Shown here piece by piece: positions 5,797 through 64,000 of a stretch of 64,000 bases of DNA (the stretch's first letter is position 1; the number at the start of each line of letters is the position of its first letter). The stretch is from Dehalococcoidia bacterium. Lineage in GTDB: Bacteria; Chloroflexota; Dehalococcoidia; Bin125. A model generated the notes under the pieces. It had not been told where the DNA came from. It ran no database searches and saw nothing but the letters and a program-made list of their open reading frames with translations. The stretch spans positions 270,341 to 334,340 of the forward strand of contig JAJDXE010000004.1 in the NCBI GenBank assembly GCA_022825265.1, given 5' to 3'. Made by a program: the position numbers and the translations under genes.

Positions 5797-6570
5797 ATGG
5801 CAACCGTAGACATCCTCCTCCCCGGCTACTCGTTCGGCACCGACTCCGGCACGCCCGCCTTCTGCGCCGTGATCCTGGTTGAATCCGACGGCCGCCGCAT
5901 CCTCGTCGACACGGCCCACGTCGGCCGCCGCGTCCAGCTACAGGAACAGCTCGCCGCCCGCGGACTCGGCGTCTCCGACATCGACCTGGTCTTCATGACC
6001 CACGCCCACTGGGACCACGTCCAGAACTTCGACGCCTTCCCCGACGTGCCGATGGCGATCCACCCGCACGAGCGCAAGTACGCCTCCGAGCCCCATGTCA
6101 ACGACTGGGCCACCCCTCAGTGGACCGGCGCCGCCATCGAAACCCACCCGATGACCGAGGTCAACGACGGCGACGAACTGGCCAAGGGCGTCCGAGTGAT
6201 TCATCTGCCGGGGCACTCGCCGGGCAGTATTGGTCTGCTGGTCGAGACCGAAGCCGGCGTCGCCGGCCTGACCGGCGACGCGATGCACACCGCCGCCGTC
6301 GGCAAGGCCGGACGCAGCCCGCTCGTCTTCTACAGCGAGTCCCAGGCCAACGAGTCCATCGCCCGCGTGATGAGCGCCTCCGACCTGCTCTATCCCGGAC
6401 ACGACCGCCCATTCCGTATGGTCGACGGCGATCCGGAGTACATCGAGGAGTACAAGCTCACCCTCAGCGGAGTCCAGCCCGACATGGCCGGCCTCACGTT
6501 CGCCGATCCGCCGACCGAACTCGTCACCTGGGTCATGCCCGGCATCGAGGACCAGCCCACCTATCAGTAG
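5797..6570 (+). CDS. MBL-fold metallo-hydrolase (N-acyl-homoserine-lactonase-like).
   Basis: MATVDILLPGYSF...THAHWDHVQNF...HLPGHSPGS...GDAMH..YPGHD, giving metallo-beta-lactamase motifs HxHxDH, H and D. The start was chosen after the repeat element. Confidence 0.8.
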   Translation: MATVDILLPGYSFGTDSGTPAFCAVILVESDGRRILVDTAHVGRRVQLQEQLAARGLGVSDIDLVFMTHAHWDHVQNFDAFPDVPMAIHPHERKYASEPHVNDWATPQWTGAAIETHPMTEVNDGDELAKGVRVIHLPGHSPGSIGLLVETEAGVAGLTGDAMHTAAVGKAGRSPLVFYSESQANESIARVMSASDLLYPGHDRPFRMVDGDPEYIEEYKLTLSGVQPDMAGLTFADPPTELVTWVMPGIEDQPTYQ

Positions 6571-30737: not shown

Positions 30738-31790
30738 ATGGTACTCCAGACGCCGCCGCTTGAACCTGTCGAGTCCATCATCCCGCTCGCGGATGAAGAC
30801 CTGACTCGCAAGGACTACGCCTCCGACGTCGACACGCGCTGGTGCCCCGGCTGCGGCGACTATTCGATCCTCGCGCAGATGCAGCGAGGACTCTCCAACC
30901 TCAACGTCGCGCCCGAGAAGATGGTCTTCGTCTCCGGGATTGGCTGCTCCTCGCGCTTCCCCTACTACATGAACACGTACGGGATGCATTCGATTCACGG
31001 CCGAGCACCGACGATCGCCTCCGGCCTCAAGCTCTCACGTCCCGACCTGATGGTCTTCGTGATCACTGGCGACGGCGACGCGCTCTCAATCGGCGGCAAT
31101 CACCTGCTGCACGTCCTGCGCCGCAACGTCGACGTGAAGATCTTCCTCTTCAACAACCGCATCTACGGACTGACCAAGGGTCAGTACTCGCCGACCTCCG
31201 AGCTGGGCAAGGTGACCAAGTCGTCGCCCGTCGGCACGACCGAGCGCCCACTCAACCCGCTGTCGGTGGCGCTCGCATCCGAGGCGACCTTCGTCGCGCG
31301 CAGCTTCGACACCGACCCGCAGCACCTGACTGCGACGATTGAGCGAGCCGCCCGGCACCATGGCGCCGCGTTCGTCGAGATCCTGCAGAACTGCAACATC
31401 TTCAACGACCGCGCGTTCGCCGACTACACCGATCGCAACGTCCGCGACGAGCGCCTGCTCTACCTCGAACACGGCCAGCCGATGCTCTTCGGCGAGAACA
31501 AGAACAAGGGACTTGCAGTCTCCGCAACCGGCCTGCGAGTGGTTGACGCCGGCGGCCCCGACGCCGGCCTGATCCTGACGCACGACGCCACGCGGCCGGC
31601 GCCCGACGTGCATCAACTCCTCGCCCGCTGCGCCTACCCCGAAATGCCCGTCCCCATGGGAGTCATCCGCCAGGTCACCACACCGACCTACGGCGACTAC
31701 CTCGACAGCCAGATCGAGGTGCAGAAGTTCAAGAACCGCCACGACGTCACCCAACTCCTCCGAGGCCGCTCCACCTGGCAGGTGGAGTAG
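30738..31790 (+). CDS. korB: 2-oxoglutarate:ferredoxin oxidoreductase beta subunit (TPP-binding).
   Basis: Begins MVLQTPPLEP...WCPGCGDYSIL...GIGCSSRFPYY...GDGD, the TPP motif. An AGGAGG RBS lies upstream of the ATG at 30738. The ORF-track extension from 30510 is rejected. Confidence 0.8.
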   Translation: MVLQTPPLEPVESIIPLADEDLTRKDYASDVDTRWCPGCGDYSILAQMQRGLSNLNVAPEKMVFVSGIGCSSRFPYYMNTYGMHSIHGRAPTIASGLKLSRPDLMVFVITGDGDALSIGGNHLLHVLRRNVDVKIFLFNNRIYGLTKGQYSPTSELGKVTKSSPVGTTERPLNPLSVALASEATFVARSFDTDPQHLTATIERAARHHGAAFVEILQNCNIFNDRAFADYTDRNVRDERLLYLEHGQPMLFGENKNKGLAVSATGLRVVDAGGPDAGLILTHDATRPAPDVHQLLARCAYPEMPVPMGVIRQVTTPTYGDYLDSQIEVQKFKNRHDVTQLLRGRSTWQVE

Positions 31791-31827
31791 CACTCGACAC
31801 TCGCCAGTTCGAGAGATGTAGAGAGGC

Positions 31828-31857
31828 CGCCCAAACGGGCGGCCTCTTTCGTTCAGA
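31828..31857. terminator. Bidirectional Rho-independent terminator between convergent korB and the SDR gene.
   Basis: Sequence gaggccgcccaaacgggcggcctcTTTcgtt forms a GC-rich stem-loop followed by a T-tract. Confidence 0.6.
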
Positions 31858-31871
31858 TGGGCAGCTATCGC

Positions 31872-32648
31872 CTAGCGACCGCGGTTGCCGCCTCCGTCGA
31901 TGGTGTGCATGGCTCCGTTGATGTATCGGGAGTCGTCGGAGCAGAGCCAGGTGACCAGTGAGGCGACCTCTTCGGGTTCTCCGTAGCGACCGAGTGGGTT
32001 TGCAGAGGCGAACATCTCGTGGACGCCCTCCGGGTTGTCGGGGTCGAACTGGCGCTCGAGGCTGCGCATCATCCTGGTCTCGATCGGGCCGGGGCAGACG
32101 GCGTTGACCCGGACTGCGGGGGCGAGTTCCTGCGAGGCCGACTTGGTCATCCCGACGACTGCGTGCTTTGAGGCGCCGTAGGCGATGATCCCCGGCGTTG
32201 GCGCGAGGCCGGCGATTGAGGCGGTGTTGACGATAGCGCCGCCGCCCGACTCAACCATCGCCGGCGCAACGTGCTTCATGCCCAGCCAGACGCCCTTGAG
32301 ATTGACCGCGATCACTCGATCGAAGTCGGCCTCGTCGAGGTCGGTCAGGGCTGAACGGACGCCCTCGATGCCGGCGTTGTTGAAGAAGGCGTCGACTCGG
32401 CCGTAGGCCGACATGGCTTCGGAGACGTAGCGGGCGACGTCGGCTTCCTGGGTGACATCGGCTTCGACCGTGATGCATTCGCCGCCGGCGTTGGCGATCG
32501 CTGCGACGGTCTCGTCGAGGTCAGAGCCGGCCAGGTCGACCGCGACTACTTTGGCTCCGTCCTGGGCGAAGCGGACGCAGGCTGCTCGTCCGATGCCTCC
32601 CGCTGCTCCGGTCACGATTGCCACCATGCCTTCGAATCGATCGCTCAT
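31872..32648 (-). CDS. SDR-family oxidoreductase.
   Basis: Has a TGAAGGIG motif and a YGASKHA catalytic region. Confidence 0.85.
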   Translation of the reverse strand: MSDRFEGMVAIVTGAAGGIGRAACVRFAQDGAKVVAVDLAGSDLDETVAAIANAGGECITVEADVTQEADVARYVSEAMSAYGRVDAFFNNAGIEGVRSALTDLDEADFDRVIAVNLKGVWLGMKHVAPAMVESGGGAIVNTASIAGLAPTPGIIAYGASKHAVVGMTKSASQELAPAVRVNAVCPGPIETRMMRSLERQFDPDNPEGVHEMFASANPLGRYGEPEEVASLVTWLCSDDSRYINGAMHTIDGGGNRGR

Positions 32649-32716
32649 CGTCTGCCGTCCTCTCAGTCGAGTTGTTGTTCAGGTTCCTGCGGAGGATAGA
32701 GCGTCCGCCGGCGCGT

Positions 32717-33592
32717 TCAGAAGATGGGGGTGCGCCAGTTTGGGGCGGCCCAGGCGAGGGCGAGGAAGACGCAGAGGACTCCGAGGCCGAGGACCAGGAC
32801 CTCGGGCAGCGGTCGGAGGATCTTGATTTTGGTTGCGGTCTGGATAAAGCCGGTCCAGTTGGGGAAGGTCCAGAGGATGACGGCGGCGATTGCGCCGACG
32901 ATCATGCCGCCGAGGTGGCCGCCGATGCTGATGTTGGGCCAGAGGAAGGAGATGACGATGTTGAGGACGAGGAAGGCGAGGATGCCGGAGTCTCGCCAAC
33001 GGACTCCGGAGGCTCGCTCGGCGATGACGACGGCGCCGGCGAGGCCGAAGACGGCTCCCGAGGCTCCGGCGGTGAAGCCGTTGGGCTCGACCAGTAGCGC
33101 GCCGAGCGCTCCGCCGGTGAGGGAGACTCCGTAGAGCAGCAGCATCCGCCACCAGCCGATGGCGGGCTCGAGCATTCGGCCGAGGAGGACGAGGATGAAG
33201 ACGTTCATGCCCATGTGGAGCAGGCCGTAGTGGAGGAAGGCTGAGGTGACGAGCCGCCACCACTCGCCGTTGTCGACGAAGCGGCCGTGCAGGGCGTAGT
33301 CGTAGTGGATCTCGGTCAGGCCGCCGCCCCAGAAGGCAAGGGAGCCGGTGTAGAGGGCGACGAAGATCCAGATCAGCGCGTTGGCGGCGGCCAGGCCCTG
33401 GGTCACCCGGATCGGCGAGGCGGTCGACCACTGGCGGGTCCGTTTGCGACCTTCGGCGACGCATTCGGGGCACTGGAAGCCGACCGCTGCCGTGATCATG
33501 CATTCGGTGCAGATCGGTCGTGAGCAGCGCTGGCAGAGGACGCCGGCCCAGGTGTCGGAGTGCCGGTAGCAGGAGGCGTCGCGCGAGCTCAT
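32717..33592 (-). CDS. Rhomboid-family intramembrane serine protease with N-terminal Cys-rich zinc ribbon.
   Basis: Contains GASGAVFGL (catalytic Ser) and GGHLGG (catalytic His), several TM segments, and N-terminal CxxC...CxxC. Confidence 0.8.
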   Translation of the reverse strand: MSSRDASCYRHSDTWAGVLCQRCSRPICTECMITAAVGFQCPECVAEGRKRTRQWSTASPIRVTQGLAAANALIWIFVALYTGSLAFWGGGLTEIHYDYALHGRFVDNGEWWRLVTSAFLHYGLLHMGMNVFILVLLGRMLEPAIGWWRMLLLYGVSLTGGALGALLVEPNGFTAGASGAVFGLAGAVVIAERASGVRWRDSGILAFLVLNIVISFLWPNISIGGHLGGMIVGAIAAVILWTFPNWTGFIQTATKIKILRPLPEVLVLGLGVLCVFLALAWAAPNWRTPIF

Positions 33593-33610
33593 AGCCTCAG
33601 TGTATGAGGG

Positions 33611-33926
33611 GGTGGTCGGTGGTTAGGGAGGAATTTTTTTCTGAGGCCGCTGTGAGAAAAAGAATCGCGATCTCCAGTGTTTTACGGGAGATCGTGAGCG
33701 TCTGGGTGGTCGGAAGTGGTTGGGGTTGGAAGGTGTTGGAAAGCGGGGGTGTCCAGTTGAGCCTTGCTCGGCTTTGCTGGGCGTGTGGCGAGTGGCTGAA
33801 TGGTCGGTGGTCGGGCCGGAAATTTTTTCCTGAGCGCGCCGAGGAAAAAAGAGGCACGATCTCCTGTGTTTTGCAGGGAATCTTGGAGAGCGAGGTGGTC
33901 GGAAGTGGTTTGGAAGGTGTTGGAAC
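33611..33926. repeat. Two tandem direct repeats of about 130 bp separated by about 60 bp, each carrying an A/U-rich hairpin. Possibly a duplicated sRNA or integration-site remnant.
   Basis: Unit 1 runs about 33611-33741 and unit 2 about 33801-33926, with long colinear identity. The hairpin is tttttct...agaaaaa in one copy and tttttcct...aggaaaaa in the other, a compensatory change. Local GC is lower than the genome. Confidence 0.6.
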
Positions 33927-34026
33927 GTTGGCGGTCACTGCGGATTGCTTCTCTTCTGCCTGTCGAACCTGTGTGCGTTATTCTATCGTGATGGGCGATG
34001 GGCTGGGGGAGTCGTAGGATTCAGCT

Positions 34027-37000
34027 ATGCCAACTCCGGAGCTATGCGGCAAATTCGCTCAATACATCCTCGATCGGCACAATCAGGCCGCCGCCGAGGC
34101 AGACATCCGAGCGGCGGCGCGCGACTTTCTGATCGAAACAGGACTCGCCGATCGCGAAGAGATCGACATGGAACAGTCACCGGCGAGCGGTTGGTCGGGA
34201 CGGGTCGACCTGCGGACGCGTGACGTCATTGTCGAGTTCAAGGTGAGAATCGGCGATCGGATCAACCCGGACGAGAAGCACGTCAACCAGCTCGACGACT
34301 ATCTCAAGGCGGCAGTGGAAGGCGGACGACCACAGCGATTCGGGATCCTGACCGACGGCAAGTACTGGGTTCTGAGATGGCCGGGGATGGGGCTGGTGCG
34401 GACGCAGGCGCCGCACGCCTTCACGCTGAACAGTGCTGACCAGGGCCTGCTGCTGTACGAGTGGCTGCGCGACCAATCGCAGGCGCTGGAAGAGCGTGGC
34501 GTGCCGCCAACGGAGGACGAAGTCAAGAAGCGACTGGGCGAGGGCCCGCGATTCGAGCAGCACATTGCTGCGCTCAACGACCTCTACCAGGCCAAGCGAG
34601 ATGATCCGACGATTGCTCTCAAGCGCGATCTCTGGCGGAGCCTGCTGGCTGCCGCGCTGGGTCAGGTGGTGGAGGAGGAACCGGACCTTGACGAGCTCTT
34701 TGTGCGACATACCTATCTCTCGGTCGTGGTCGGACTGGCGGTGCAGGCGGCGTTCGGGATTGAAATCGAAGGGGCGGCTAACAGCGATCCCGTCGCGCTG
34801 CTGGGCGGTCAATTGTTCGTCGACCAGACCGGCGTCAGCGGCGTGGTCGAGTCGGACTTCTTTACCTGGCCTGCGGAAATCGGCGGGGACGAGTGGATCC
34901 GCGACCTGGCGCAGCGGATTGGCTGGTTCGACTGGAACGAGGCGGAGTCGGACATTGCGCGGATTCTGTACGAATCGGTGATTCCCGCCGACGACCGGCG
35001 ACGGCTGGGCGAGTACTACACGCCCGACTGGCTGGCGCGGGAGATTGTCGACGCGGTGGTGACCGACCCGCTGAATCAGCGGGTGCTCGATCCGGCCTGC
35101 GGATCGGGATCGTTCATCTTCGCGGCGGTGCGCAAGTACCTGAGCGCGGCCCAGGCCGACGGGCGGAGCTCGGCGCAGGCGGTGGACGGACTGCTGGATC
35201 ACGTGATCGGGATCGACGTGCATCCGGTCGCGGTGCATCTCGCCCGGGCGACCTGGACGCTGGCCGCCCGCGACGCGCTGGAAGGCGCGGTCGCCGAAGG
35301 CCAGTCGGTCAACGCGACGGTGCCTGTCTACCTGGGCGACTCGCTGCAATTGCGGGCCGAGACCTCGGGCATGTTCGCCCAGCAGACGGTGACGATTCCC
35401 GTGCCCGACCCGCCCGACTCAGACCTCGAGTTCAACCGAGAGCTGGAGTTTCCCCGAGCCCTGGTCGAGCAAGCCGACTGGTTCGACAACCTCATGACGC
35501 GAATGGCCAACGCGATCGAGAACGGTGAGGACCCGGCCTGGGCGCTGGACGACGAAGCGATCGGCAGCGGGCCGGAGCGGGAGATGCTGGAGAAGACCGC
35601 CGCCCTGCTGCAGCAACTCCACGAAGAAGGCCGCGACCACATCTGGGCGTACTACACGCGGAACCTAGTACGTCCGGTGGCGCTGCGGGCGGATCCGGTG
35701 GATGTGATCGTCGGAAATCCGCCGTGGATCACGTACAACAAGACGCAGGCGGTGATTCGTGAGGAGTTGGAGCGGCAGAGCAAGCAGCGATACGAAATCT
35801 GGGCGGGTGGTCGCTACGCGACGCACCAGGACATCGCGGGCATGTTCTACGCGCGCTGCGTGGAGCTGTACCTCAAGCAAGGCGGCATGGCGGCGATGGT
35901 GCTACCGCACAGCGCCTTGCAGACCGGACAGTACACGAAGTGGCGAACAGGTCAGTGGGGCGTGCTATCGGTTGACCTGGGCGTGCGCCCGCCGTGGGAC
36001 CTCGAACAGGTCGAACCGAACAGCTTCTTCCCCGTCCCATCTTGCGTGGCGTTTCTGCTGCGCAGGGAACCGAGCGGTAAGCCGCTCGCAAGTCAGGCGG
36101 AGCGGTGGTTGGGGGGTGCCGGAGGGCCGTTCTCGCGTGAGCGAGTTCGCCTATTCGACACATCCGGCGACTTTGCATCGCCATATGGGGGACGTGCCAG
36201 GCAAGGTGCAACAATCGTGCCTCGTGTTCTCTTTTTCGTCAACGAACAGTCTTCAATGGCCGCCGTCCAAGCGGCCAACACCGTGACCGTCTCTCCTCGG
36301 CGAAGCAGACAAGAAAAAGCACCCTGGAAACACCTTCAGCTACCAGAGCTGAAGGGTCAGACGATTGAAGCTGGGCACGTCTTCGACGTTCACCTCGGTG
36401 AGACCCTTGCCCCGCATGTGTTGTTGACGCCCCTAAGGGCAGCCTTGCCTCTTGCGAAGTCAACAAGAGTGTTGGCCAAGGCGGAGGATGGTTGGTTTGG
36501 AGTGGATCCGTTATCACTCGACGAGCGAATGCGTCGTCGCTGGAGACGAATCAGTGGTATCTGGGATAAGCAGAAGGGTGTGAACAACAAGCTAAGCCTG
36601 CTTGAAAGATTGGATTACGTCGGCAATCTCACTAACCAGAGAACGCTTGTCTCGCTAGGCACGAGGATCGCCTACACGAAGTCCGGCCGTCCGACGGCAG
36701 CTGTTGTCGATGATGATGCAGCCGTCATCGATCACACGGCCTATTGGGTTCAAGTCGGTTCGGAGACCGAAGCACATTATATTTCCGCAGTCATCAATAG
36801 CGACACTCTGGAAGCTGCGGTCGCACCGCTCATGTCGAAGGGTCAGTTCGGCGCGCGCGACATGCATAAGCACCTCTGGCGACTGCCTATCCCCGAGTAC
36901 GACGACACCGACCCGCTCCACGTCGAACTGGCTGAGGCCGGTGAGGCGGCGGCGATTGGCGCGAAGGCGCTCTGGGATGGGGTTCGGGTTGAGCGCGAGG

Positions 37001-37116
37001 GCAAGGGTCAGTCGACATCGGTGACGGTGGCTCGGCGTGAGATACGGAAGTGGTTGTCGGAGTCGGCGGAGGGTCGGCGGGTGGAGGAGTTGGTGTCGAG
37101 GTTGTTGGGGGGTTAG
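34027..37116 (+). CDS. MmeI-family Type IIL restriction-modification enzyme: single polypeptide with N-terminal PD-(D/E)xK nuclease, N6-adenine methyltransferase and C-terminal specificity domain.
   Basis: 1029 aa. The N-terminal RVDLRTRDVIVEFKV matches the MmeI VDLx8IEMK nuclease motif. Also has GEYYTPDWLAREIV, LDPACGSGSFIF (motif I) and IVGNPPWITYNK (motif IV, NPPW, gamma-class amino-MTase). A C-terminal region of about 400 aa would be the target recognition domain. Confidence 0.75.
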   Translation: MPTPELCGKFAQYILDRHNQAAAEADIRAAARDFLIETGLADREEIDMEQSPASGWSGRVDLRTRDVIVEFKVRIGDRINPDEKHVNQLDDYLKAAVEGGRPQRFGILTDGKYWVLRWPGMGLVRTQAPHAFTLNSADQGLLLYEWLRDQSQALEERGVPPTEDEVKKRLGEGPRFEQHIAALNDLYQAKRDDPTIALKRDLWRSLLAAALGQVVEEEPDLDELFVRHTYLSVVVGLAVQAAFGIEIEGAANSDPVALLGGQLFVDQTGVSGVVESDFFTWPAEIGGDEWIRDLAQRIGWFDWNEAESDIARILYESVIPADDRRRLGEYYTPDWLAREIVDAVVTDPLNQRVLDPACGSGSFIFAAVRKYLSAAQADGRSSAQAVDGLLDHVIGIDVHPVAVHLARATWTLAARDALEGAVAEGQSVNATVPVYLGDSLQLRAETSGMFAQQTVTIPVPDPPDSDLEFNRELEFPRALVEQADWFDNLMTRMANAIENGEDPAWALDDEAIGSGPEREMLEKTAALLQQLHEEGRDHIWAYYTRNLVRPVALRADPVDVIVGNPPWITYNKTQAVIREELERQSKQRYEIWAGGRYATHQDIAGMFYARCVELYLKQGGMAAMVLPHSALQTGQYTKWRTGQWGVLSVDLGVRPPWDLEQVEPNSFFPVPSCVAFLLRREPSGKPLASQAERWLGGAGGPFSRERVRLFDTSGDFASPYGGRARQGATIVPRVLFFVNEQSSMAAVQAANTVTVSPRRSRQEKAPWKHLQLPELKGQTIEAGHVFDVHLGETLAPHVLLTPLRAALPLAKSTRVLAKAEDGWFGVDPLSLDERMRRRWRRISGIWDKQKGVNNKLSLLERLDYVGNLTNQRTLVSLGTRIAYTKSGRPTAAVVDDDAAVIDHTAYWVQVGSETEAHYISAVINSDTLEAAVAPLMSKGQFGARDMHKHLWRLPIPEYDDTDPLHVELAEAGEAAAIGAKALWDGVRVEREGKGQSTSVTVARREIRKWLSESAEGRRVEELVSRLLGG

Positions 37117-54138: not shown

Positions 54139-54960
54139 ATGACGACCGCCACCGTTGGAGTTTCACCCGATGCACCGCCCGAGCCGGACAGCTACGACTG
54201 GCCGGGGATCGTCGCCGGATTGCAGCGCTACCTGCGTCTGACGGCGACGCCGGTCGGAATGAAGATGTTCGAGACGATCGAGGAGATGCAGGAGGTCGAG
54301 CGGATCCGTCGGCCGCAGTTCAAGCATGCACTTGATCAGTTGGTGGCGCAGGCTCGCTGGTTGAACTTCACTCTGGGCGTGACGATGGACGACCTGATCG
54401 GGGCGCAGTGCGGGGCACCGGTAGGTCTGTATCCCAATGAGGACGACGGTGAGTGGCGTCTGCGGACGACGATGACCAATGTCTGGTTCGAGACCGACGA
54501 GGACTCGATCCTGCACCAGCAGGCGATGGATGTGATGCCGTATGGGCGCTATGCCGCGTTGGCGCTCTCGCCGATCGCGACCGGTCGGTTGGATCCGCCC
54601 GACGTGGTGCTGCTGTATGGGACTCCGGGGCAGATGATCATCCTGATCAACGGGCTGCAGTTTTCGGGCTTCAAGAAGTTTGAGTTCGCCTCGGTGGGTG
54701 AGTCGGCTTGCGCCGATAGCTGGGGCCGGGCGCTGCGGACGGGCGAGCCATCGCTGAGCATTCCCTGCTACGCCGAGCGGCGCTTTGGCGGCGTCCAGGA
54801 CGACGAGCTGCTGATGGCAATTCCTCCGAGGTATCTGCCGAAGCTGCTGGACGGCCTGGACAAGCTGTCGCGGAATGGTCTGAGATACCCGATTCCACCA
54901 CTGGGAATCCAGGCGGATCCGTCGGAGTCGCTGGCGAGGTCGTACCAGGACCGGTTCTAG
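54139..54960 (+). CDS. DUF169-family protein.
   Basis: 273 aa, soluble. The pattern resembles DUF169 proteins. Low certainty on family. Confidence 0.45.
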   Translation: MTTATVGVSPDAPPEPDSYDWPGIVAGLQRYLRLTATPVGMKMFETIEEMQEVERIRRPQFKHALDQLVAQARWLNFTLGVTMDDLIGAQCGAPVGLYPNEDDGEWRLRTTMTNVWFETDEDSILHQQAMDVMPYGRYAALALSPIATGRLDPPDVVLLYGTPGQMIILINGLQFSGFKKFEFASVGESACADSWGRALRTGEPSLSIPCYAERRFGGVQDDELLMAIPPRYLPKLLDGLDKLSRNGLRYPIPPLGIQADPSESLARSYQDRF

Positions 54961-55012
54961 GTGGGCTGGTGGAGTCTCTGTGATCGTCCAGCTGCGGTCC
55001 AGCGAGTCTGTA

Positions 55013-55042
55013 AAGCGCTTGTTGACAGGCGGATCGGGGCGC
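55013..55042 (+). promoter_or_regulatory. Sigma-70/sigma-A-type promoter for the 23S rRNA transcript.
   Basis: TTGACA, then 18 nt, then TAACAT (cttgTTGACAggcggatcggggcgcgggTAACATtgc), about 380 nt upstream of the mature 23S 5' end. Confidence 0.5.
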
Positions 55043-55425
55043 GGGTAACATTGCTCCTTGCACCCCTAGTTCAGCAGCCCTCGTTCTGACGCGAGGCGAC
55101 CGACCTCGGGATGCGCCTTTACAAGGGACATAGTGATTGAGATGCGTCCACAGCATCCCCCCGGAAGTCGGCGACGGCGCCGGTTTCCAACGACATCAGG
55201 GGGGCTGCGGGAAACTCTCGCGACGGCTGGTTGCTTGCTGCAGCTGGACGGGCGCGGGAGGTACGTGTGTGGTTCTAGATGACATGCAAGATGACTGCGC
55301 TGGTCCCCGGATTTGCCTCGGGGACGTAACCAGCGCGGCGCGCGGCACGATCGGGAGCCTCGAGGAGCGCAACTACCTCGGGGACTGGCTCTCGATCAGA
55401 AGTGCATGCGCGTGGCGTAGCGCAG

Positions 55426-58420
<2,995 letters not shown>

Positions 58421-58548
58421 ACGCCACGCGCAGCAACTGCAGCACGTACCTAATGCGCAGCACGCGTTGCAACGTGCTGTGAGGCGGAATGCAGCATCAG
58501 GCATGCGTCAACTACACACGAACGCATCTCTTCACTATGACCCCGCGT

Positions 58549-58623
58549 TGCGGGATAGAGCAGCGGTAGCTCGTCAGGCTCATAACCTGGAGGTCGTGGG
58601 TTCGAATCCCACTCCCGCTACCA
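58549..58623 (+). tRNA. tRNA-Met (anticodon CAT), fMet-like sequence.
   Basis: TGCGGGATAGAGCAGCGGTAGCTCGTCAGGCTCATAACCTGGAGGTCGTGGGTTCGAATCCCACTCCCGCTACCA folds as a cloverleaf with a CTCATAA anticodon loop and an encoded CCA. It is highly similar to bacterial initiator tRNA, but the 1:72 pair appears to be U-U. Confidence 0.8.
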
Positions 58624-58689
58624 CTCCCAAACCAACCGGCCGATGCTCAGGCATCGGCCGGTTGTTGTATCTGCCTGTTTGATGGAAGG

Positions 58690-59334
58690 TTAGCTTCGGC
58701 CGTCGAGTGGTTCTCCGAGCTGCTCGTCCAGGGCGGAGAAGACGAAGCGGTCGCCTACCTGCACCTGCTCGGACATCACCGGGTTGAGCAGGACTTCGTC
58801 GCCTCGGACGACGGCGATCAGCCGGCGGTTGCCGGCTCGCTCCAGCGCCCATTCCACGGTCTGATTGACCCAGGTCGCGGGGATCGGGAAGACGCCGATC
58901 CCGTAGCTCGCGGTTAGCGGCAGGAAGTCGCTGGCCGATGCGACCTGGATGATGTGAGCGAAGCGTTCGGCTCCGTCGCGCTCGGGACGGATGACCCGTT
59001 TCGCGCCCAGCAGTCGCAGGATCCGCGCGTGACGGTCGGTCGATGCCTTGGCGTAGACCATCTGAACATTGAGTTGTTGCAGGTTCATCATTGCCAGGAC
59101 TGAGGCCTCGAGGTCAGCGGTGGCGACGACCGCAACGTCGACTTCGGCCAGCGAGAGGGCACGAAGCGCGTCGATGTCGGTGATGTCGGCGATGCGGGCG
59201 TCGGTCACTTTTGGCGCGAGTTCGTGGACGTTGCCTTCGTCGAGGTCGATCGCCAGGACCTCGTGTCCCAGGTCGTCCAGCGCCTCGGCCAGGTGCGAAC
59301 CGAAGCGTCCCAATCCTAAGACGGCCACTTGCAT
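58690..59334 (-). CDS. trkA: Potassium transporter peripheral NAD-binding subunit TrkA (KTN domain).
   Basis: Begins MQVAVLGLGRFGSHLAEALDDLGHEVLAIDLDEGNV... (a Rossmann GxGxxG). The track fuses it into a 693-aa ORF; the true start is the Met at about 59334. Confidence 0.8.
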   Translation of the reverse strand: MQVAVLGLGRFGSHLAEALDDLGHEVLAIDLDEGNVHELAPKVTDARIADITDIDALRALSLAEVDVAVVATADLEASVLAMMNLQQLNVQMVYAKASTDRHARILRLLGAKRVIRPERDGAERFAHIIQVASASDFLPLTASYGIGVFPIPATWVNQTVEWALERAGNRRLIAVVRGDEVLLNPVMSEQVQVGDRFVFSALDEQLGEPLDGRS

Positions 59335-59342
59335 GTCGGCTC

Positions 59343-60767
59343 CTAACCGATCCGGACCGCTTCGGTGGGGAAGCGGAAGCGTTCGCGCGGACGGTCCGGG
59401 ATCAGGCTGGTGATCACGAGCGGTCCCAGGCGTCCGACGAACATCATCATGATCAGGATATTGGCCCCTGCCTGGGTTGCGGCCTGCGAGGCGCCCTGCG
59501 ACCAGCCGCAGTTGGCCAGCGCCGACATCACGTCGAAGGCGGCCGGCAATACTTCGATGTTCGGATCGACCGCGATGAAGAAGAGCAGCCCGAAGACGTA
59601 GCCGCCCAGCGCGATGAGGACGAGCGCGTTGGCCCGCAGCACGACGGAAGCTGGAATCTCGCGGCCGAACGCGACCACGCGCGGGGAACCGATCAGCGCT
59701 GACACGACGCCGAATGTGACGACCATGAACGAACCGATCTTGATGCCTGAGGCTGTCGAGGTTGAGGCGCCGCCGATGAACATGAGGATGATCATGACCA
59801 GGGAGGTGTCGTCGCTGGCCTGGTCGAGCGGCGAGGTGGTCATCCCGGTGGTGCGGTTGACCGAGAGGAAGAGGGAGTTGACCAGCTTGGAGCCGACGCT
59901 CTGATCGGCAAACATCCGTGACCAGTCTGCGATGAGGAAGAACGCGGCGCCGACCACGAGCAACAGGCCCATGCCGGTGACGACGAGCTTGGTGTCGAGT
60001 GTCCAGCGTCGGCGCGGCTGTCGCAGGTTGAACACGGTCAGGAAGGAGAGCGAGCCGAGAAACGCGGAGATTCCCATCACGACCATCGGCCAGGCGTCGT
60101 GAGCCTGTCCAATGAAGCTTCGGCTGCCACCCATGAGGTCGAACCCGGCATTGTTGAAGGCGGAGATTGCGTGATACCCAGCCAACCATACGGCGCGTCC
60201 GTCGGAGACGCCTCCGGGTTGCTCGATCATGAACCAGGGCAGGAGCAGGATGAACGTCGTGAACTCGACGAGGGCGGTGTAGATCATTACTCGGCGCAGG
60301 AGCACTGAGGCGCCTGAACCGTCGATTCCGGTCGTCATCAGCTCGAGCCCGAAGAATGCGCGACCGCGAATCCCCAGGCGCTGTCCCGCAAGCACAATCA
60401 GGACGCCTGCGTACATCGTCACGCCCAGCCCGCCGAGCTGGAACAAGGCCAGGGTGATGAACTCGCCGAAGTTCGAGAATGTCTCCTCTGTGTCGAATCG
60501 GGTCAAGCCGGTCACGCTGACCGCGGAGACGGACGTGAACAGCGCGTCGAGGAAGGGGATGGATTGACCGCTGGCCGATGAGATCGGCAGACTGAGCAGG
60601 GCTCCGCCGGCCAACATCACGAGGGCGAAGAGGACAACCACCATCCAGGCGCGCGGTGTGATCCGAATGCGACGCTGACGCGTGGCCCTGACACGTTCCG
60701 GCTGCAGGCGTACCCGTCGCAGCACCACATCGCCAGGCCGCCGACGGTAACCGCGTCGCTGGCTCAT
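59343..60767 (-). CDS. trkH: TrkH/KtrB-family potassium uptake membrane protein.
   Basis: 474 aa, polytopic, with recurring GFD/GGS selectivity-filter-like loops (NNAGFDLMGG). Confidence 0.8.
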   Translation of the reverse strand: MSQRRGYRRRPGDVVLRRVRLQPERVRATRQRRIRITPRAWMVVVLFALVMLAGGALLSLPISSASGQSIPFLDALFTSVSAVSVTGLTRFDTEETFSNFGEFITLALFQLGGLGVTMYAGVLIVLAGQRLGIRGRAFFGLELMTTGIDGSGASVLLRRVMIYTALVEFTTFILLLPWFMIEQPGGVSDGRAVWLAGYHAISAFNNAGFDLMGGSRSFIGQAHDAWPMVVMGISAFLGSLSFLTVFNLRQPRRRWTLDTKLVVTGMGLLLVVGAAFFLIADWSRMFADQSVGSKLVNSLFLSVNRTTGMTTSPLDQASDDTSLVMIILMFIGGASTSTASGIKIGSFMVVTFGVVSALIGSPRVVAFGREIPASVVLRANALVLIALGGYVFGLLFFIAVDPNIEVLPAAFDVMSALANCGWSQGASQAATQAGANILIMMMFVGRLGPLVITSLIPDRPRERFRFPTEAVRIG

Positions 60768-60913: not shown

Positions 60914-62515
60914 ATGACACACCTCCGCGTCGCGGCGAACGATTCGCCTTCTTCCATCGGGTGCCGCTGGATAACTGTGTTGCTCTTGATGGCGGTGTTC
61001 CTTGGCGCTTGCGACTCGTCGCAGCCGCAGCGGAGCGAACAAGACGCCTCCGTCACAGCCACAAATGAGGCGGCGACGTCCGAGCAGTCGCAAGCGCGCA
61101 CCAGCCGGGAGCCCACCGCGTCGGATGCGCCGGATGGTGAGGAGCAGAACAATTCGCAATCGGAGGATGCCCCTGGCGTGGGTGCTTTAGAGCCGGCGAA
61201 CGGAATCTGTGACCGGCACGAACACATCCAGGGCGAGATCCTCTGGACGCTCGGCAAGGAAGATTGCGCCGATGTGTCGGATGCAGACCTGGCGGGTATC
61301 ACCGGGCTGCTCGACCTTTCTGATCACTTCGCGTTCAGATCTCTGGATCTCGGGGACCTTCAGGGCTTGACATCCTTGGAGCGATTGTTCATGGATCTGA
61401 GTCTTGACCGGCTTCCGCTCGGCATCTTCGACGACCTGACCAGCCTGCGAGAACTACGCCTCTATCACACGAGAATCATTGACGACTCCGACCACACCGT
61501 CACCCTGCCGAACGGGATTTTCGACTCTCTGTCGAGTTTGGAGTCATTGCATTTGATGATCGCCCCAACTCAAGCCGGGCTGTTCGATTCTCTACAAAAC
61601 CTGACTCAACTCACGATCTCTACGACGAGTTCAACCAATCCGCCCCAAGGTCTCTTCGATCGATTGCATAACCTCGAGGAACTGCTCGTAGGCTATGGCG
61701 ATCTCAGTAGCCTCGATGCCGGAATCTTCGATGAGTTGCATAATCTCAAAGTGCTAGAGCTCGGCAACAACGAGTTGGTCGAGCTGCCAGCCGGTTTGTT
61801 CGACAACCTCACGCAGCTTCGATTCTTAAACCTGCGCGGGAACCAACTGACAGCATTGCCCCGCGGTGTCTTCGATAACTTGCACCAGCTTGAAAGGCTG
61901 TGGCTCTACGAGAACCCACTCACAGCGTTGCCGCCAGGGGTGTTCGATGACCTGAACAGCCTGACCCACCTGTCGCTTGGTACTGGAATGATGGAGTCGC
62001 TAGAGCCCGATGTCTTCACCGGCTTGGGCGGTTTACGTGAGTTGGCACTGTTCGGCGACAATCTGAGTGAGCTGCCGACCGGCTTGCTCGCGCCTCTCTC
62101 CAATCTGTATTGGTTGGATCTCCGATGGCCGGGGACGTCTGGCCTGCCGCCGGAACTGTTCGTCGGGTTAGAACAGCTGACGATTGTGCATTTATCGTCA
62201 TACGCGGAGTCGTTACCGCCGTTGACAGTGGCGCTGCGGAAGATCGACTCCACTTCCTTTGTGATCGACGTTGCTGAAGCCGCGCCATTTCAACTCGCCG
62301 TCTACCTCAAGGCGGACGGCGGGACTCTGTCCAGTAGCAGAGCGACGGTTCCCGCAGGACAAACGAGCAGTGAGGTCGTGCATATCGAGCCAGGCGAAAG
62401 CGGTACCGTCCAGATCTCCGTTAGCTCCTGGTCGCTTCCTGAGAATTATGTGTATGACGGACTCACGGTGCCGCCGCCGGAGGAGTGGGAGCCGCTGGTC
62501 TTTTCATTTGAGTGA
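60914..62515 (+). CDS. Leucine-rich-repeat (LRR) lipoprotein, low-GC gene.
   Basis: Lipobox LMAVFLGAC|DSS. Then a Ser/Glu-rich linker. Then about 12 LRRs (LxxLxxLxLxxNxLxxLPxGxFDxL). Then a C-terminal beta-rich domain. Confidence 0.75.
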   Translation: MTHLRVAANDSPSSIGCRWITVLLLMAVFLGACDSSQPQRSEQDASVTATNEAATSEQSQARTSREPTASDAPDGEEQNNSQSEDAPGVGALEPANGICDRHEHIQGEILWTLGKEDCADVSDADLAGITGLLDLSDHFAFRSLDLGDLQGLTSLERLFMDLSLDRLPLGIFDDLTSLRELRLYHTRIIDDSDHTVTLPNGIFDSLSSLESLHLMIAPTQAGLFDSLQNLTQLTISTTSSTNPPQGLFDRLHNLEELLVGYGDLSSLDAGIFDELHNLKVLELGNNELVELPAGLFDNLTQLRFLNLRGNQLTALPRGVFDNLHQLERLWLYENPLTALPPGVFDDLNSLTHLSLGTGMMESLEPDVFTGLGGLRELALFGDNLSELPTGLLAPLSNLYWLDLRWPGTSGLPPELFVGLEQLTIVHLSSYAESLPPLTVALRKIDSTSFVIDVAEAAPFQLAVYLKADGGTLSSSRATVPAGQTSSEVVHIEPGESGTVQISVSSWSLPENYVYDGLTVPPPEEWEPLVFSFE

Positions 62516-63013: not shown

Positions 63014-64000
63014 CGTCTGACATTGAGCGGGCGATGGAGGACAGTTCCTGGATTCGTCGGATGTTCGAGCTGGGCATCCAGCTCCGACAGGAGCGTGGAC
63101 CCGAGAACGTTTTCGACCTCTCGTTAGGCAACCCGATCGCCGAGCCGCCGCCGCAGTTCTTCGACGAACTACGCAGCTACGCCGGCGCCGACACGCCCGG
63201 CGCGCATCGCTACATGCCTAACTCCGGCTATGTCGAAACTCGGCAGGCCGTGGCCGACGCGCTTTCCGATGAGACCGGACTGAGCTACGGCCCCGACCAC
63301 ATCGTCATGACCGTTGGGGCTGCTGCGGCGCTGAACGTCGTCGTGCACTCGCTTTGCGACCGAGACGATGAGGTCATCATCCTCACGCCGTTCTTCGCCG
63401 AGTACCTGTTCTATGCCAGTAACCACACCGCCAAGCCGGTGGTCGTCGGATGCGACGACGAGTTCATTCCCGACCTTGATGAGCTTGAACGCAAGCTCTC
63501 CGAACGCACCAAGATTGTGATCGTCAACTCACCGAACAATCCATCGGGCGCGATGTATCCGGGCTCGTTCATCGAGGCGCTTGGCGACTTGCTGCGCCAG
63601 AAGTCGACTGAGTTTGGTTCCGAGATCTTCCTGGTCAGCGATGAGCCGTACCGCAAGATCCTGTTCGACGAACACGTCTACCCATTCCCTCAGCTCGCCT
63701 ATGAGCGGACGATTACGGTTACCTCTCATGCGAAGGACCTGGCGCTGCCGGGTGACCGGATCGGCTACATCGCGGTCCATCCCGGCTACGACGACGGCGG
63801 TCAGCTCATGGACGCGATGATCTTCTGCAATCGCGTCCTGGGATTCGTCAATGCGCCGGCGATCATGCAGCACCTGGTGCGCAACCTGCAAACGGTGACC
63901 ATCGACACGGCCGACTACCAGCAGAAGCGGGACTATCTCTACGGCGTGCTGACCGCCGCCGGCTACGAGGTGCGGAAGCCTGAGGGGGCGTTCTACATGT
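63014..64000 (+). CDS. PLP-dependent aminotransferase (class I/II), 3'-truncated at the window edge.
   Basis: Contains LSLGNP, NSPNNPSG, SHAKDLALPGDRIGY (with the K in SHAK as the probable PLP lysine). A GGAGGG lies upstream of the ATG at 63014. Confidence 0.75.

Follow-up and report, generated by a model that had tools for sequence, protein, structure and literature searches.

We analyzed a 64,000-nucleotide (nt) stretch of the genome of an uncultured Dehalococcoidia bacterium (assembly GCA_022825265.1, contig JAJDXE010000004.1, positions 270,341 to 334,340; hereafter the window), focusing on a 23S ribosomal RNA (rRNA) gene that an earlier reading of the sequence (the original prediction) had described as an orphan. 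An Rfam search located a full-length 23S rRNA gene of 2992 nt at 55425–58416 on the plus strand, which matched RF02541 (LSU_rRNA_bacteria) over model positions 1–2925 of 2925 with 2632.8 bits (gathering threshold, 50); the 5′ landmark GGTGGATGCCTTGGC, expected at about 55447, was located at 55446. On the same strand, the gene was followed by a 132-nt spacer (58417–58548), a gene for a methionine transfer RNA, tRNA-Met(CAT), with a gene-encoded CCA end (58549–58623 according to ARAGORN; 58549–58620 with 66.6 bits according to Rfam), and a candidate intrinsic terminator (58633–58674). The open reading frame of a DUF169 protein gene (54139–54960, plus strand), which ended at 54960 as predicted and lies outside the unit, formed the upstream boundary, and two convergent open reading frames on the minus strand, trkA (58690–59334) and trkH (59343–60767), formed the downstream one.

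Apart from the 23S gene, the tRNA gene at 58549 was the sole RNA gene that Rfam matched in the window. At the gathering threshold, neither a 16S nor a 5S rRNA match was found anywhere in the 64 kb, which reach from about 55 kb before the 23S gene to 5.6 kb beyond it. When the covariance model of 5S rRNA (RF00001) was run at E ≤ 10 on 58350–59400 and on 54900–55500, it returned nothing, and a search of the window for the clade's own 5S core, allowing as many as three mismatches, was likewise negative. These results bore out the claims that the 23S gene is an orphan, with neither an adjoining 16S gene upstream nor a 5S gene downstream, and that tRNA-Met follows it. Of the two observations that would have overturned this reading, a divergent 5S in the spacer and a 16S gene upstream, neither was made. 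The locus thus departs from the canonical 16S–23S–5S operon in lacking a 16S gene upstream and a 5S gene directly downstream, and falls within the survey definition of unlinked rRNA genes, in which 16S and 23S are separated by kilobases with intervening genes.

The layout was conserved among relatives. Scanning species-representative genomes with the downstream TrkH yielded 24 close relatives (72–95% identity), all of them uncultured metagenome-assembled genomes (MAGs) named "Dehalococcoidia bacterium" or "Chloroflexota bacterium", several at chromosome level. The 17 loci with full flanks displayed the same order (DUF169 ... leader–23S–short spacer–tRNA-Met–hairpin–trkA–trkH), and its downstream part was also present in 8 truncated contigs, 6 from relatives and 2 from Joint Genome Institute metagenomes. 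A metagenome scan with the 3′-terminal 25-mer of the 23S gene returned two contigs only, from the same clade and with the same layout; the survey of the layout reaches across the clade whose 23S is at least 95% identical. Rfam searches of 14 related loci of about 21 kb each detected 23S, tRNA-Met, and tRNA-Glu but never 16S; a 5S was present in a single locus, L018, which is described below.

This conservation bears on whether the assembly is sound, since a 23S gene could have been mis-joined between unrelated flanks at conserved sequence. One assembly of this organism made from short reads (ENA metagenome ERZ23491399) does break at the two critical places: its 178-kb scaffold stops about 30 nt into the 23S gene and its 5.7-kb downstream scaffold stops inside the tRNA gene, leaving the joins without support from that assembly. 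Exact look-ups with spurious open reading frames of the 23S gene, aimed at its contig in that assembly, returned nothing. However, 17 independent assemblies, which come from different species and include chromosome-level ones, have the same two flanks around the 23S gene, and the leader and trailer on its opposite sides are complementary to each other (see below). The chance of such an artefact is practically nil, and misassembly of the locus is excluded, because the same order recurs in 17 loci, some of them at chromosome level.

Across the window and its relatives, the 23S gene matched the model over its full length with 2618–2649 bits. Its identity to the 17 relatives (95–98%) exceeded that of the leader (75–86%) and of the neighboring protein genes (72–88% at the DNA level). 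Decay of the window 23S as an extra copy appears unlikely because of this full model match and conservation above that of the flanks.

As a separate observation, synteny among the 23S loci ended at a tRNA-Glu(TTC) gene (7998–8073 in L018; loci L004–L027) that lies just beyond position 64000 of the window. Past this gene each genome carried different DNA, and it was here, too, that the window organism's short-read scaffold stopped. The tRNA-Glu(TTC) site may be a hotspot of integration or rearrangement.

Predicted promoter, processing stalk, and terminator

We aligned the 520 nt upstream of the 23S gene in 18 sequences (the window and 17 relatives) to obtain a phylogenetic footprint of the promoter. 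Alignable sequence began abruptly at CTGTAAAsCGCTTGTTGACAt, the DNA 5′ of this block being unalignable. The candidate promoter (55008–55051, plus strand) consists of the block CTGTAAAGCGCTTG (55008–55021), a −35 hexamer TTGACA (55022–55027), an 18-nt spacer, and a −10 hexamer TAACAT (55046–55051); in a consensus scan, the two hexamers matched the consensus at 10 of 12 positions. The −35 hexamer was invariant in all 18 loci, the −10 hexamer kept TAnnnT at fixed spacing in all 18, and the bases just 3′ of it, TTGyTTCTTGCACCCC, were conserved among them. Thus, the TTGACA-N18-TAACAT promoter of the original prediction stood, although its position is 55022–55051 and not about 55013. The footprint across 18 sequences, rather than the consensus match, makes a promoter belonging to the 23S unit credible and supports its assignment to the sigma-70 type, with transcription probably starting at about 55058–55062. 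A second promoter considered at TTTACA/TTGACA within the boxA-like element described below was rejected, as no −10 hexamer occurs at a suitable spacing.

Alternatively, the 23S unit might have no promoter of its own and be transcribed by read-through from DUF169, which has the same orientation, whose stop codon is 61 nt from the −35 hexamer, and which is separated from it by no terminator-like site. This is quite improbable, however, as among the 18 aligned loci DUF169 directly adjoins the invariant promoter block in just 5, other DNA intervening in the remainder (about two thirds).

From the inferred start, the transcript of the 23S unit would begin with a highly structured leader of about 365 nt (55058–55424, plus strand), which among relatives contains long invariant blocks. 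Near its 5′ end is a hairpin at about 55077–55097, whose arms vary compensatorily among relatives (CCTCG/CGAGG, CCCCC/GGGGG, and CCCGC/GCGGG). This hairpin is followed at 55113–55127 by GCGCCTTTACAAGGG, an element conserved in the 18-locus alignment that resembles the Escherichia coli consensus of boxA, the antiterminator of rRNA (rrn) operons. The hairpin and the boxA-like GCGCCTTTACAAGGG may together constitute a Nus-factor antitermination site.

We next considered the spacer between the 23S and tRNA genes as the trailer of the 23S transcript. For the leader and trailer of the 18 sequences, RNAalifold predicted nested long-range helices between four leader strands (55133–55146, 55264–55274, 55337–55341, and 55402–55420) and four trailer strands (58419–58432, 58456–58463, 58505–58520, and 58523–58535). 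From the outside inward, 55133–55146 paired with 58523–58535, 55264–55274 with 58510–58520, 55337–55341 with 58505–58509, 55402–55410 with 58456–58463, and 55412–55420 with 58419–58427, the last helix running directly into helix 1 of the 23S rRNA. Pair counts showed that nearly every pair was a standard one in 16–18 of the 18 sequences. In the window, the leader and trailer cofolded at −52.1 kcal/mol, compared with −14.4 ± 3.6 kcal/mol for the leader with 200 dinucleotide-shuffled trailers, none of which reached so low an energy (z = −10.5). On account of these helices and this interaction energy, we read the spacer as the 3′ strand of a putative processing stalk that an RNase III-type enzyme would cut. 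RNase III cuts stalks of this kind in Helicobacter pylori, whose rRNA operons are split, as well as in E. coli and B. subtilis (PMC6582327). RNAalifold also paired the first bases of the predicted transcript (55056–55062) with the 5′ acceptor strand of the tRNA; this pairing would compete with tRNA folding and was not relied on.

The perfect 7-bp stem that had been noted in a spacer of about 130 nt (cagcacg/cgtgctg) was present inside the trailer as a hairpin at 58459–58480. The trailer also contained a 27-nt insertion (58428–58454) common to the window and one relative, L020, only, in which the processing-helix motif GCGCAGCA recurs, so that alternative pairings arise. The stem, and the near equality of the 132-nt spacer to the length of a 5S rRNA, are what would be expected if a divergent or degenerate 5S were hidden in the spacer or leader and the unit were 23S–5S–tRNA. 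Against this, neither flank of the 23S gene contained a 5S match even at E ≤ 10, the 5S core is absent from the window, and normal 5S genes occur elsewhere in relatives (see below). Moreover, the conserved parts of the spacer are those complementary to the leader, and the spacer measures 74–123 nt in 16 of the 17 relatives and 132 nt in L020; most relatives' spacers, at 74–106 nt, cannot hold a 5S because they are shorter than its approximately 118 nt. A hidden 5S therefore has only a negligible probability, and we retain the reading of the spacer as a stalk strand.

The tRNA gene has several features of an initiator. Its anticodon is CAU (ARAGORN), and position 1 is unpaired with position 72 in all 18 sequences, a U standing opposite a U; the usual mismatch of bacterial initiators at 1:72 is C·A. 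In the Rfam alignment its D stem is GAGC/GCUC, giving A11:U24. The anticodon stem is GGG/CCC in 14 of the 18 sequences, which gives them the three consecutive G-C pairs (29–31:39–41) that typify initiators; the window and three relatives (L004, L023, and L027) have A29-U41/G30-C40/G31-C39, where the replacement of G29-C41 by A29-U41 (positions 58577/58589 of the window) changes both sides and keeps the pair. Compared with its E. coli counterparts, the tRNA shares 63–65 of 77 bases with tRNA-fMet as against 49–52 of 77 with the elongator, and another, elongator-like tRNA-Met was found elsewhere in a relative. Judged from these features, the tRNA-Met of the original prediction appears to be of the initiator type.

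The predicted terminator comprises a 14-bp G+C-rich hairpin (58633–58664) followed by the T-rich run TTGTATCTG, begins 10 nt after the CCA end, and sits between the tRNA gene and the convergent trkA. A hairpin occupied this position in all 17 relatives, with compensatory changes in its arms. Because the terminator directly follows the initiator-type tRNA, the unit appears to consist of 23S and tRNA-fMet only.

The 5S and 16S rRNA genes of relatives

In L018, the one related locus in which Rfam detected a 5S gene, this gene is complete (91.5 bits) and is separated from the 23S gene upstream of it by 6,987 nt. This 5S lies past trkA–trkH, two more genes, and tRNA-Glu, and is followed by its own terminator, rpsA, and clpB. 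We then searched contigs of close homologues of S1 (the rpsA product) for further 5S contexts. In 10 of 10 distinct related contexts, a 5S gene (88–99 bits) was found directly upstream of rpsA–clpB. A conserved extended −10 element (TGCTAAGAT; GTGCTAAGAT) preceded the mature 5′ end by about 8 nt, and the terminator was also conserved, while the DNA further upstream was unrelated even between strains with identical S1.

In three of these contexts the 16S gene lay upstream of the 5S. L089 and L090 displayed the order tilS–16S (full length)–tRNAIle(GAT)–tRNAAla(TGC)–2.2 to 4.7 kb of variable protein genes–5S–rpsA, L088 had the same elements spread across 7.4 kb, and in L086 a tRNAAla lay 97 nt before the 5S. 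The 16S–tRNAIle–tRNAAla group sits upstream of the 5S by 2.7 kb in L089, 5.2 kb in L090, and 7.4 kb in L088. None of these 16S loci contained a 23S gene. The 16S/5S locus of the relatives looks like an old rrn operon minus its 23S gene, because its order equals the standard 16S–tRNAIle–tRNAAla–23S–5S without the 23S.

The region between tRNA-Ala and 5S was hypervariable, even between strains with identical S1 (L088, 6067–8306; L090, 4814–9899; L091, 909–1523; L095, 1–9986; L018, 5690–7958). Its genes were defence- or toxin-antitoxin-like, encoding PIN/AF2212, AbiJ_NTD4, UvrD-type helicases with PDDEXK, DNA methylases, and DUF4062, and included a weak TIR-like match. The slot vacated by the 23S gene may have become a hotspot that collects such genes. 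Two further features were observed at these loci: in L088, a cobalamin riboswitch (2442–2652; 95.7 bits) and a FecCD/periplasmic-binding/ABC transporter lie between tRNA-Ile and tRNA-Ala, and L090 has a second tRNA-Ala copy at 5843–5916.

The 16S gene of relatives has a candidate promoter, TTGACT-17-TAATAT-TGTTTTCTGCGC, that resembles the one of the 23S unit, and a related 16S leader carries a boxA-like element, GCCTTAACAA, at a position similar to that of GCGCCTTTACAAGGG in the 23S leader. These similar motifs hint at a route by which the separate units could be co-regulated.

Interpretation of the 23S locus

We consider it highly probable that the locus is a self-contained unit making 23S rRNA and initiator tRNA in a Dehalococcoidia bacterium whose three rRNA genes are dispersed. 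This interpretation draws on direct observations, namely the gene order, the absence of 16S and 5S from the window, the conservation of the layout, the places at which relatives carry their 5S and 16S genes, and the complementarity of leader and trailer. In the proposed scheme, the sigma-70-type promoter at 55022–55051 would start transcription at about 55060, and the leader hairpin and boxA-like element would recruit Nus factors for antitermination. The leader of about 365 nt would then pair with the 132-nt trailer in nested helices continuing into helix 1 of the 23S rRNA, and a double-strand RNase of the RNase III type would cut this stalk, releasing pre-23S rRNA. RNase P would free the 5′ end of the tRNA, 13 nt past the outermost helix, with CCA already encoded, and the hairpin at 58633–58664 would end the transcript. 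In relatives, 5S rRNA would come from its own small gene upstream of rpsA–clpB, with its own extended −10 element and terminator.

Several points weigh against this interpretation. Every step from promoter and start site to cleavage and termination has been predicted from sequence; the consensus promoter scan taken alone was at chance level (1 promoter found versus 0.9 expected), and the missing terminator-like site between DUF169 and the promoter leaves room for some read-through. In the stalk, variation was one-sided, from G-C to G-U on the trailer with the leader strands invariant, which represents conservation and not covariation. The placement of 16S and 5S was read from relatives, as look-ups through S1 homologues led to other samples and not to the window organism's own copies. 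The distance between 23S and 5S varies, as it is only 7 kb in the short-read contig L018, whose 23S–5S junction beside tRNA-Glu could be an assembly join, and about 1.01 Mb on a 2,459,283-bp chromosome and 0.71 Mb on a 3,278,079-bp chromosome if, as these two values assume, both records of each chromosome share coordinates. The 16S of relatives, being in the rpsA/5S neighborhood, would then also be 0.7–1.0 Mb away from the 23S.

Finally, as our view of the genome was limited to the window, the window 23S could be an extra or decaying copy, with a canonical rrn operon elsewhere supplying the ribosome. We regard this as very unlikely. The gene matches the model over its full length, is more conserved than its flanks, and is accompanied by a conserved promoter, processing helices, and a terminator; furthermore, the 16S locus of relatives contains tRNAIle–tRNAAla, protein genes, and 5S without a 23S. 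A dispersed, self-contained 23S–tRNA-fMet unit remains our preferred interpretation.

As to the origin of this unit, an ancestral 16S–tRNAIle–tRNAAla–23S–5S operon most likely lost its 23S gene to a site where it is now coupled to tRNA-fMet. This relocation may have occurred either by translocation or by duplication and reciprocal loss. Neither route is favored by the flanks: similarity of the 23S leader and trailer to the 16S/5S loci, which would have pointed to duplication, did not rise above noise. Selection may have favored the co-transcription of 23S and initiator tRNA because it couples initiation capacity to the making of 50S subunits, with release of the tRNA linked to the stalk base. 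Finally, it is conceivable, although doubtful, that the layout 16S–tRNAIle–tRNAAla...5S and 23S–tRNAfMet is ancestral in a large part of Dehalococcoidia, marine and sponge-associated; in that case, the usual drawing of unlinked rRNA genes, 16S apart from 23S–5S, would be wrong for that group.

Comparison with known arrangements and implications

In the alphaproteobacterial rrn operon, 16S–tRNAIle–tRNAAla–23S–5S–tRNAfMet all form one operon. The arrangement described here is similar in that the initiator tRNA is distal on an rRNA transcript and tRNAIle–tRNAAla follow 16S; it differs in that the 5S, which stands between 23S and tRNA-fMet in the alphaproteobacterial operon, is absent from that position. 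Leptospira interrogans, whose rRNA genes are also dispersed, is not known to have a relic order 16S–tRNA–tRNA...5S or a 23S–tRNA-fMet unit. According to PMC8467490, which cites Fukunaga & Mifuchi 1989, rrs, rrl, and rrf of L. interrogans are dispersed, with two copies each of 23S and 16S. On that account, this species of an unrelated phylum likewise has a 23S without an adjacent 5S and three separate transcription units.

Unlinked 16S and 23S genes have been documented in several free-living phyla, Dehalococcoidia among them (Brewer et al., 10.1101/705046; PMC7761764). The present locus comes from the same class of bacteria, and here too the 16S and 23S genes lie apart and do so throughout the clade. 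However, these surveys scored the 16S–23S distance only, and the split was drawn as 16S apart from 23S–5S (10.1101/705046; PMC7761764), whereas here the 23S stands alone with an initiator tRNA, and in relatives the 5S has remained with the 16S and tRNA-Ala. A 23S gene set apart from the 5S has been called "very unusual in bacteria" and was reported in genomes of the Candidate Phyla Radiation (CPR)/Patescibacteria, in about half of which the 5S is nearer to the 16S than the 23S is (PMC8172020). The CPR bacteria are putative symbionts with small genomes, whose spacers often contain homing endonucleases (PMC8172020), in contrast to the Dehalococcoidia genomes considered here, which have 2.5–3.6 Mb, 63% G+C, and a clean 23S–tRNA-fMet unit. 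In Helicobacter pylori, the 23S also forms a separate unit with a leader of hundreds of nucleotides and a leader–trailer stalk; there, unlike here, the 5S is kept downstream of the 23S, and RNase III cleavage is experimental where ours is predicted (PMC6582327). The literature searched, which did not extend to GenBank annotations, yielded no account of where the 5S gene lies in Dehalococcoidia or SAR202. Thus, split rRNA genes were already known, in Dehalococcoidia too; what appears to be new, going by gene order, is a lone 23S–tRNA-fMet unit with the 5S on the 16S side.

We also observed other features of the window. GC skew of the plus strand flips sign at 31500–34000, from −0.03 to −0.14 in the first 31.5 kb to +0.05 to +0.23 at 32–60 kb, independently of gene strand and with an origin-like polarity. 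No dnaA gene and no DnaA-box cluster were found at this switch. If it is an origin, the 23S gene lies about 22 kb away and is co-oriented with replication. Close by, an intergenic region (33600–33930) contains two direct copies of a repeat of about 190 nt, each with an inverted repeat on A/T runs (GGAATTTTTTTCTGAG...GAGAAAAAGAATC) and the motif GATCTCCwGTGTTTTrC. The repeats lie just upstream of a gene for a 1029-aa N6-methylase/Eco57I-type (type IIG-like) protein (34027–37116), and next to them, at 36–38.5 kb, the G+C content is lower (0.55–0.59). Downstream of the 23S unit, a gene for a 533-aa leucine-rich-repeat protein (60914–62515, plus strand; LRR_8, E = 6.6e-32) is inserted between trkH and an LMWPc phosphatase gene; it is absent from relatives such as L018. 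Sponge symbionts commonly encode eukaryote-like repeat proteins.

Together, these results suggest that bacteria with genomes of free-living size (2.5–3.6 Mb) make their ribosomes from three separate rRNA transcription units. This raises the testable question of how such bacteria keep the three rRNAs at equal levels, to which the similar promoters and boxA-like motifs of the 16S and 23S units suggest an answer. There are also practical consequences: long-amplicon profiling across 16S, the internal transcribed spacer, and 23S cannot capture the clade, and the 23S and 16S of one organism cannot be linked by adjacency. In addition, short-read assemblies break at these rRNA genes, so that MAGs of the group tend to fail rRNA completeness criteria. 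The loci would also constitute a rare readable record of the break-up of an rrn operon, in which the former place of the 23S gene is still visible as a gap between tRNA-Ala and 5S.

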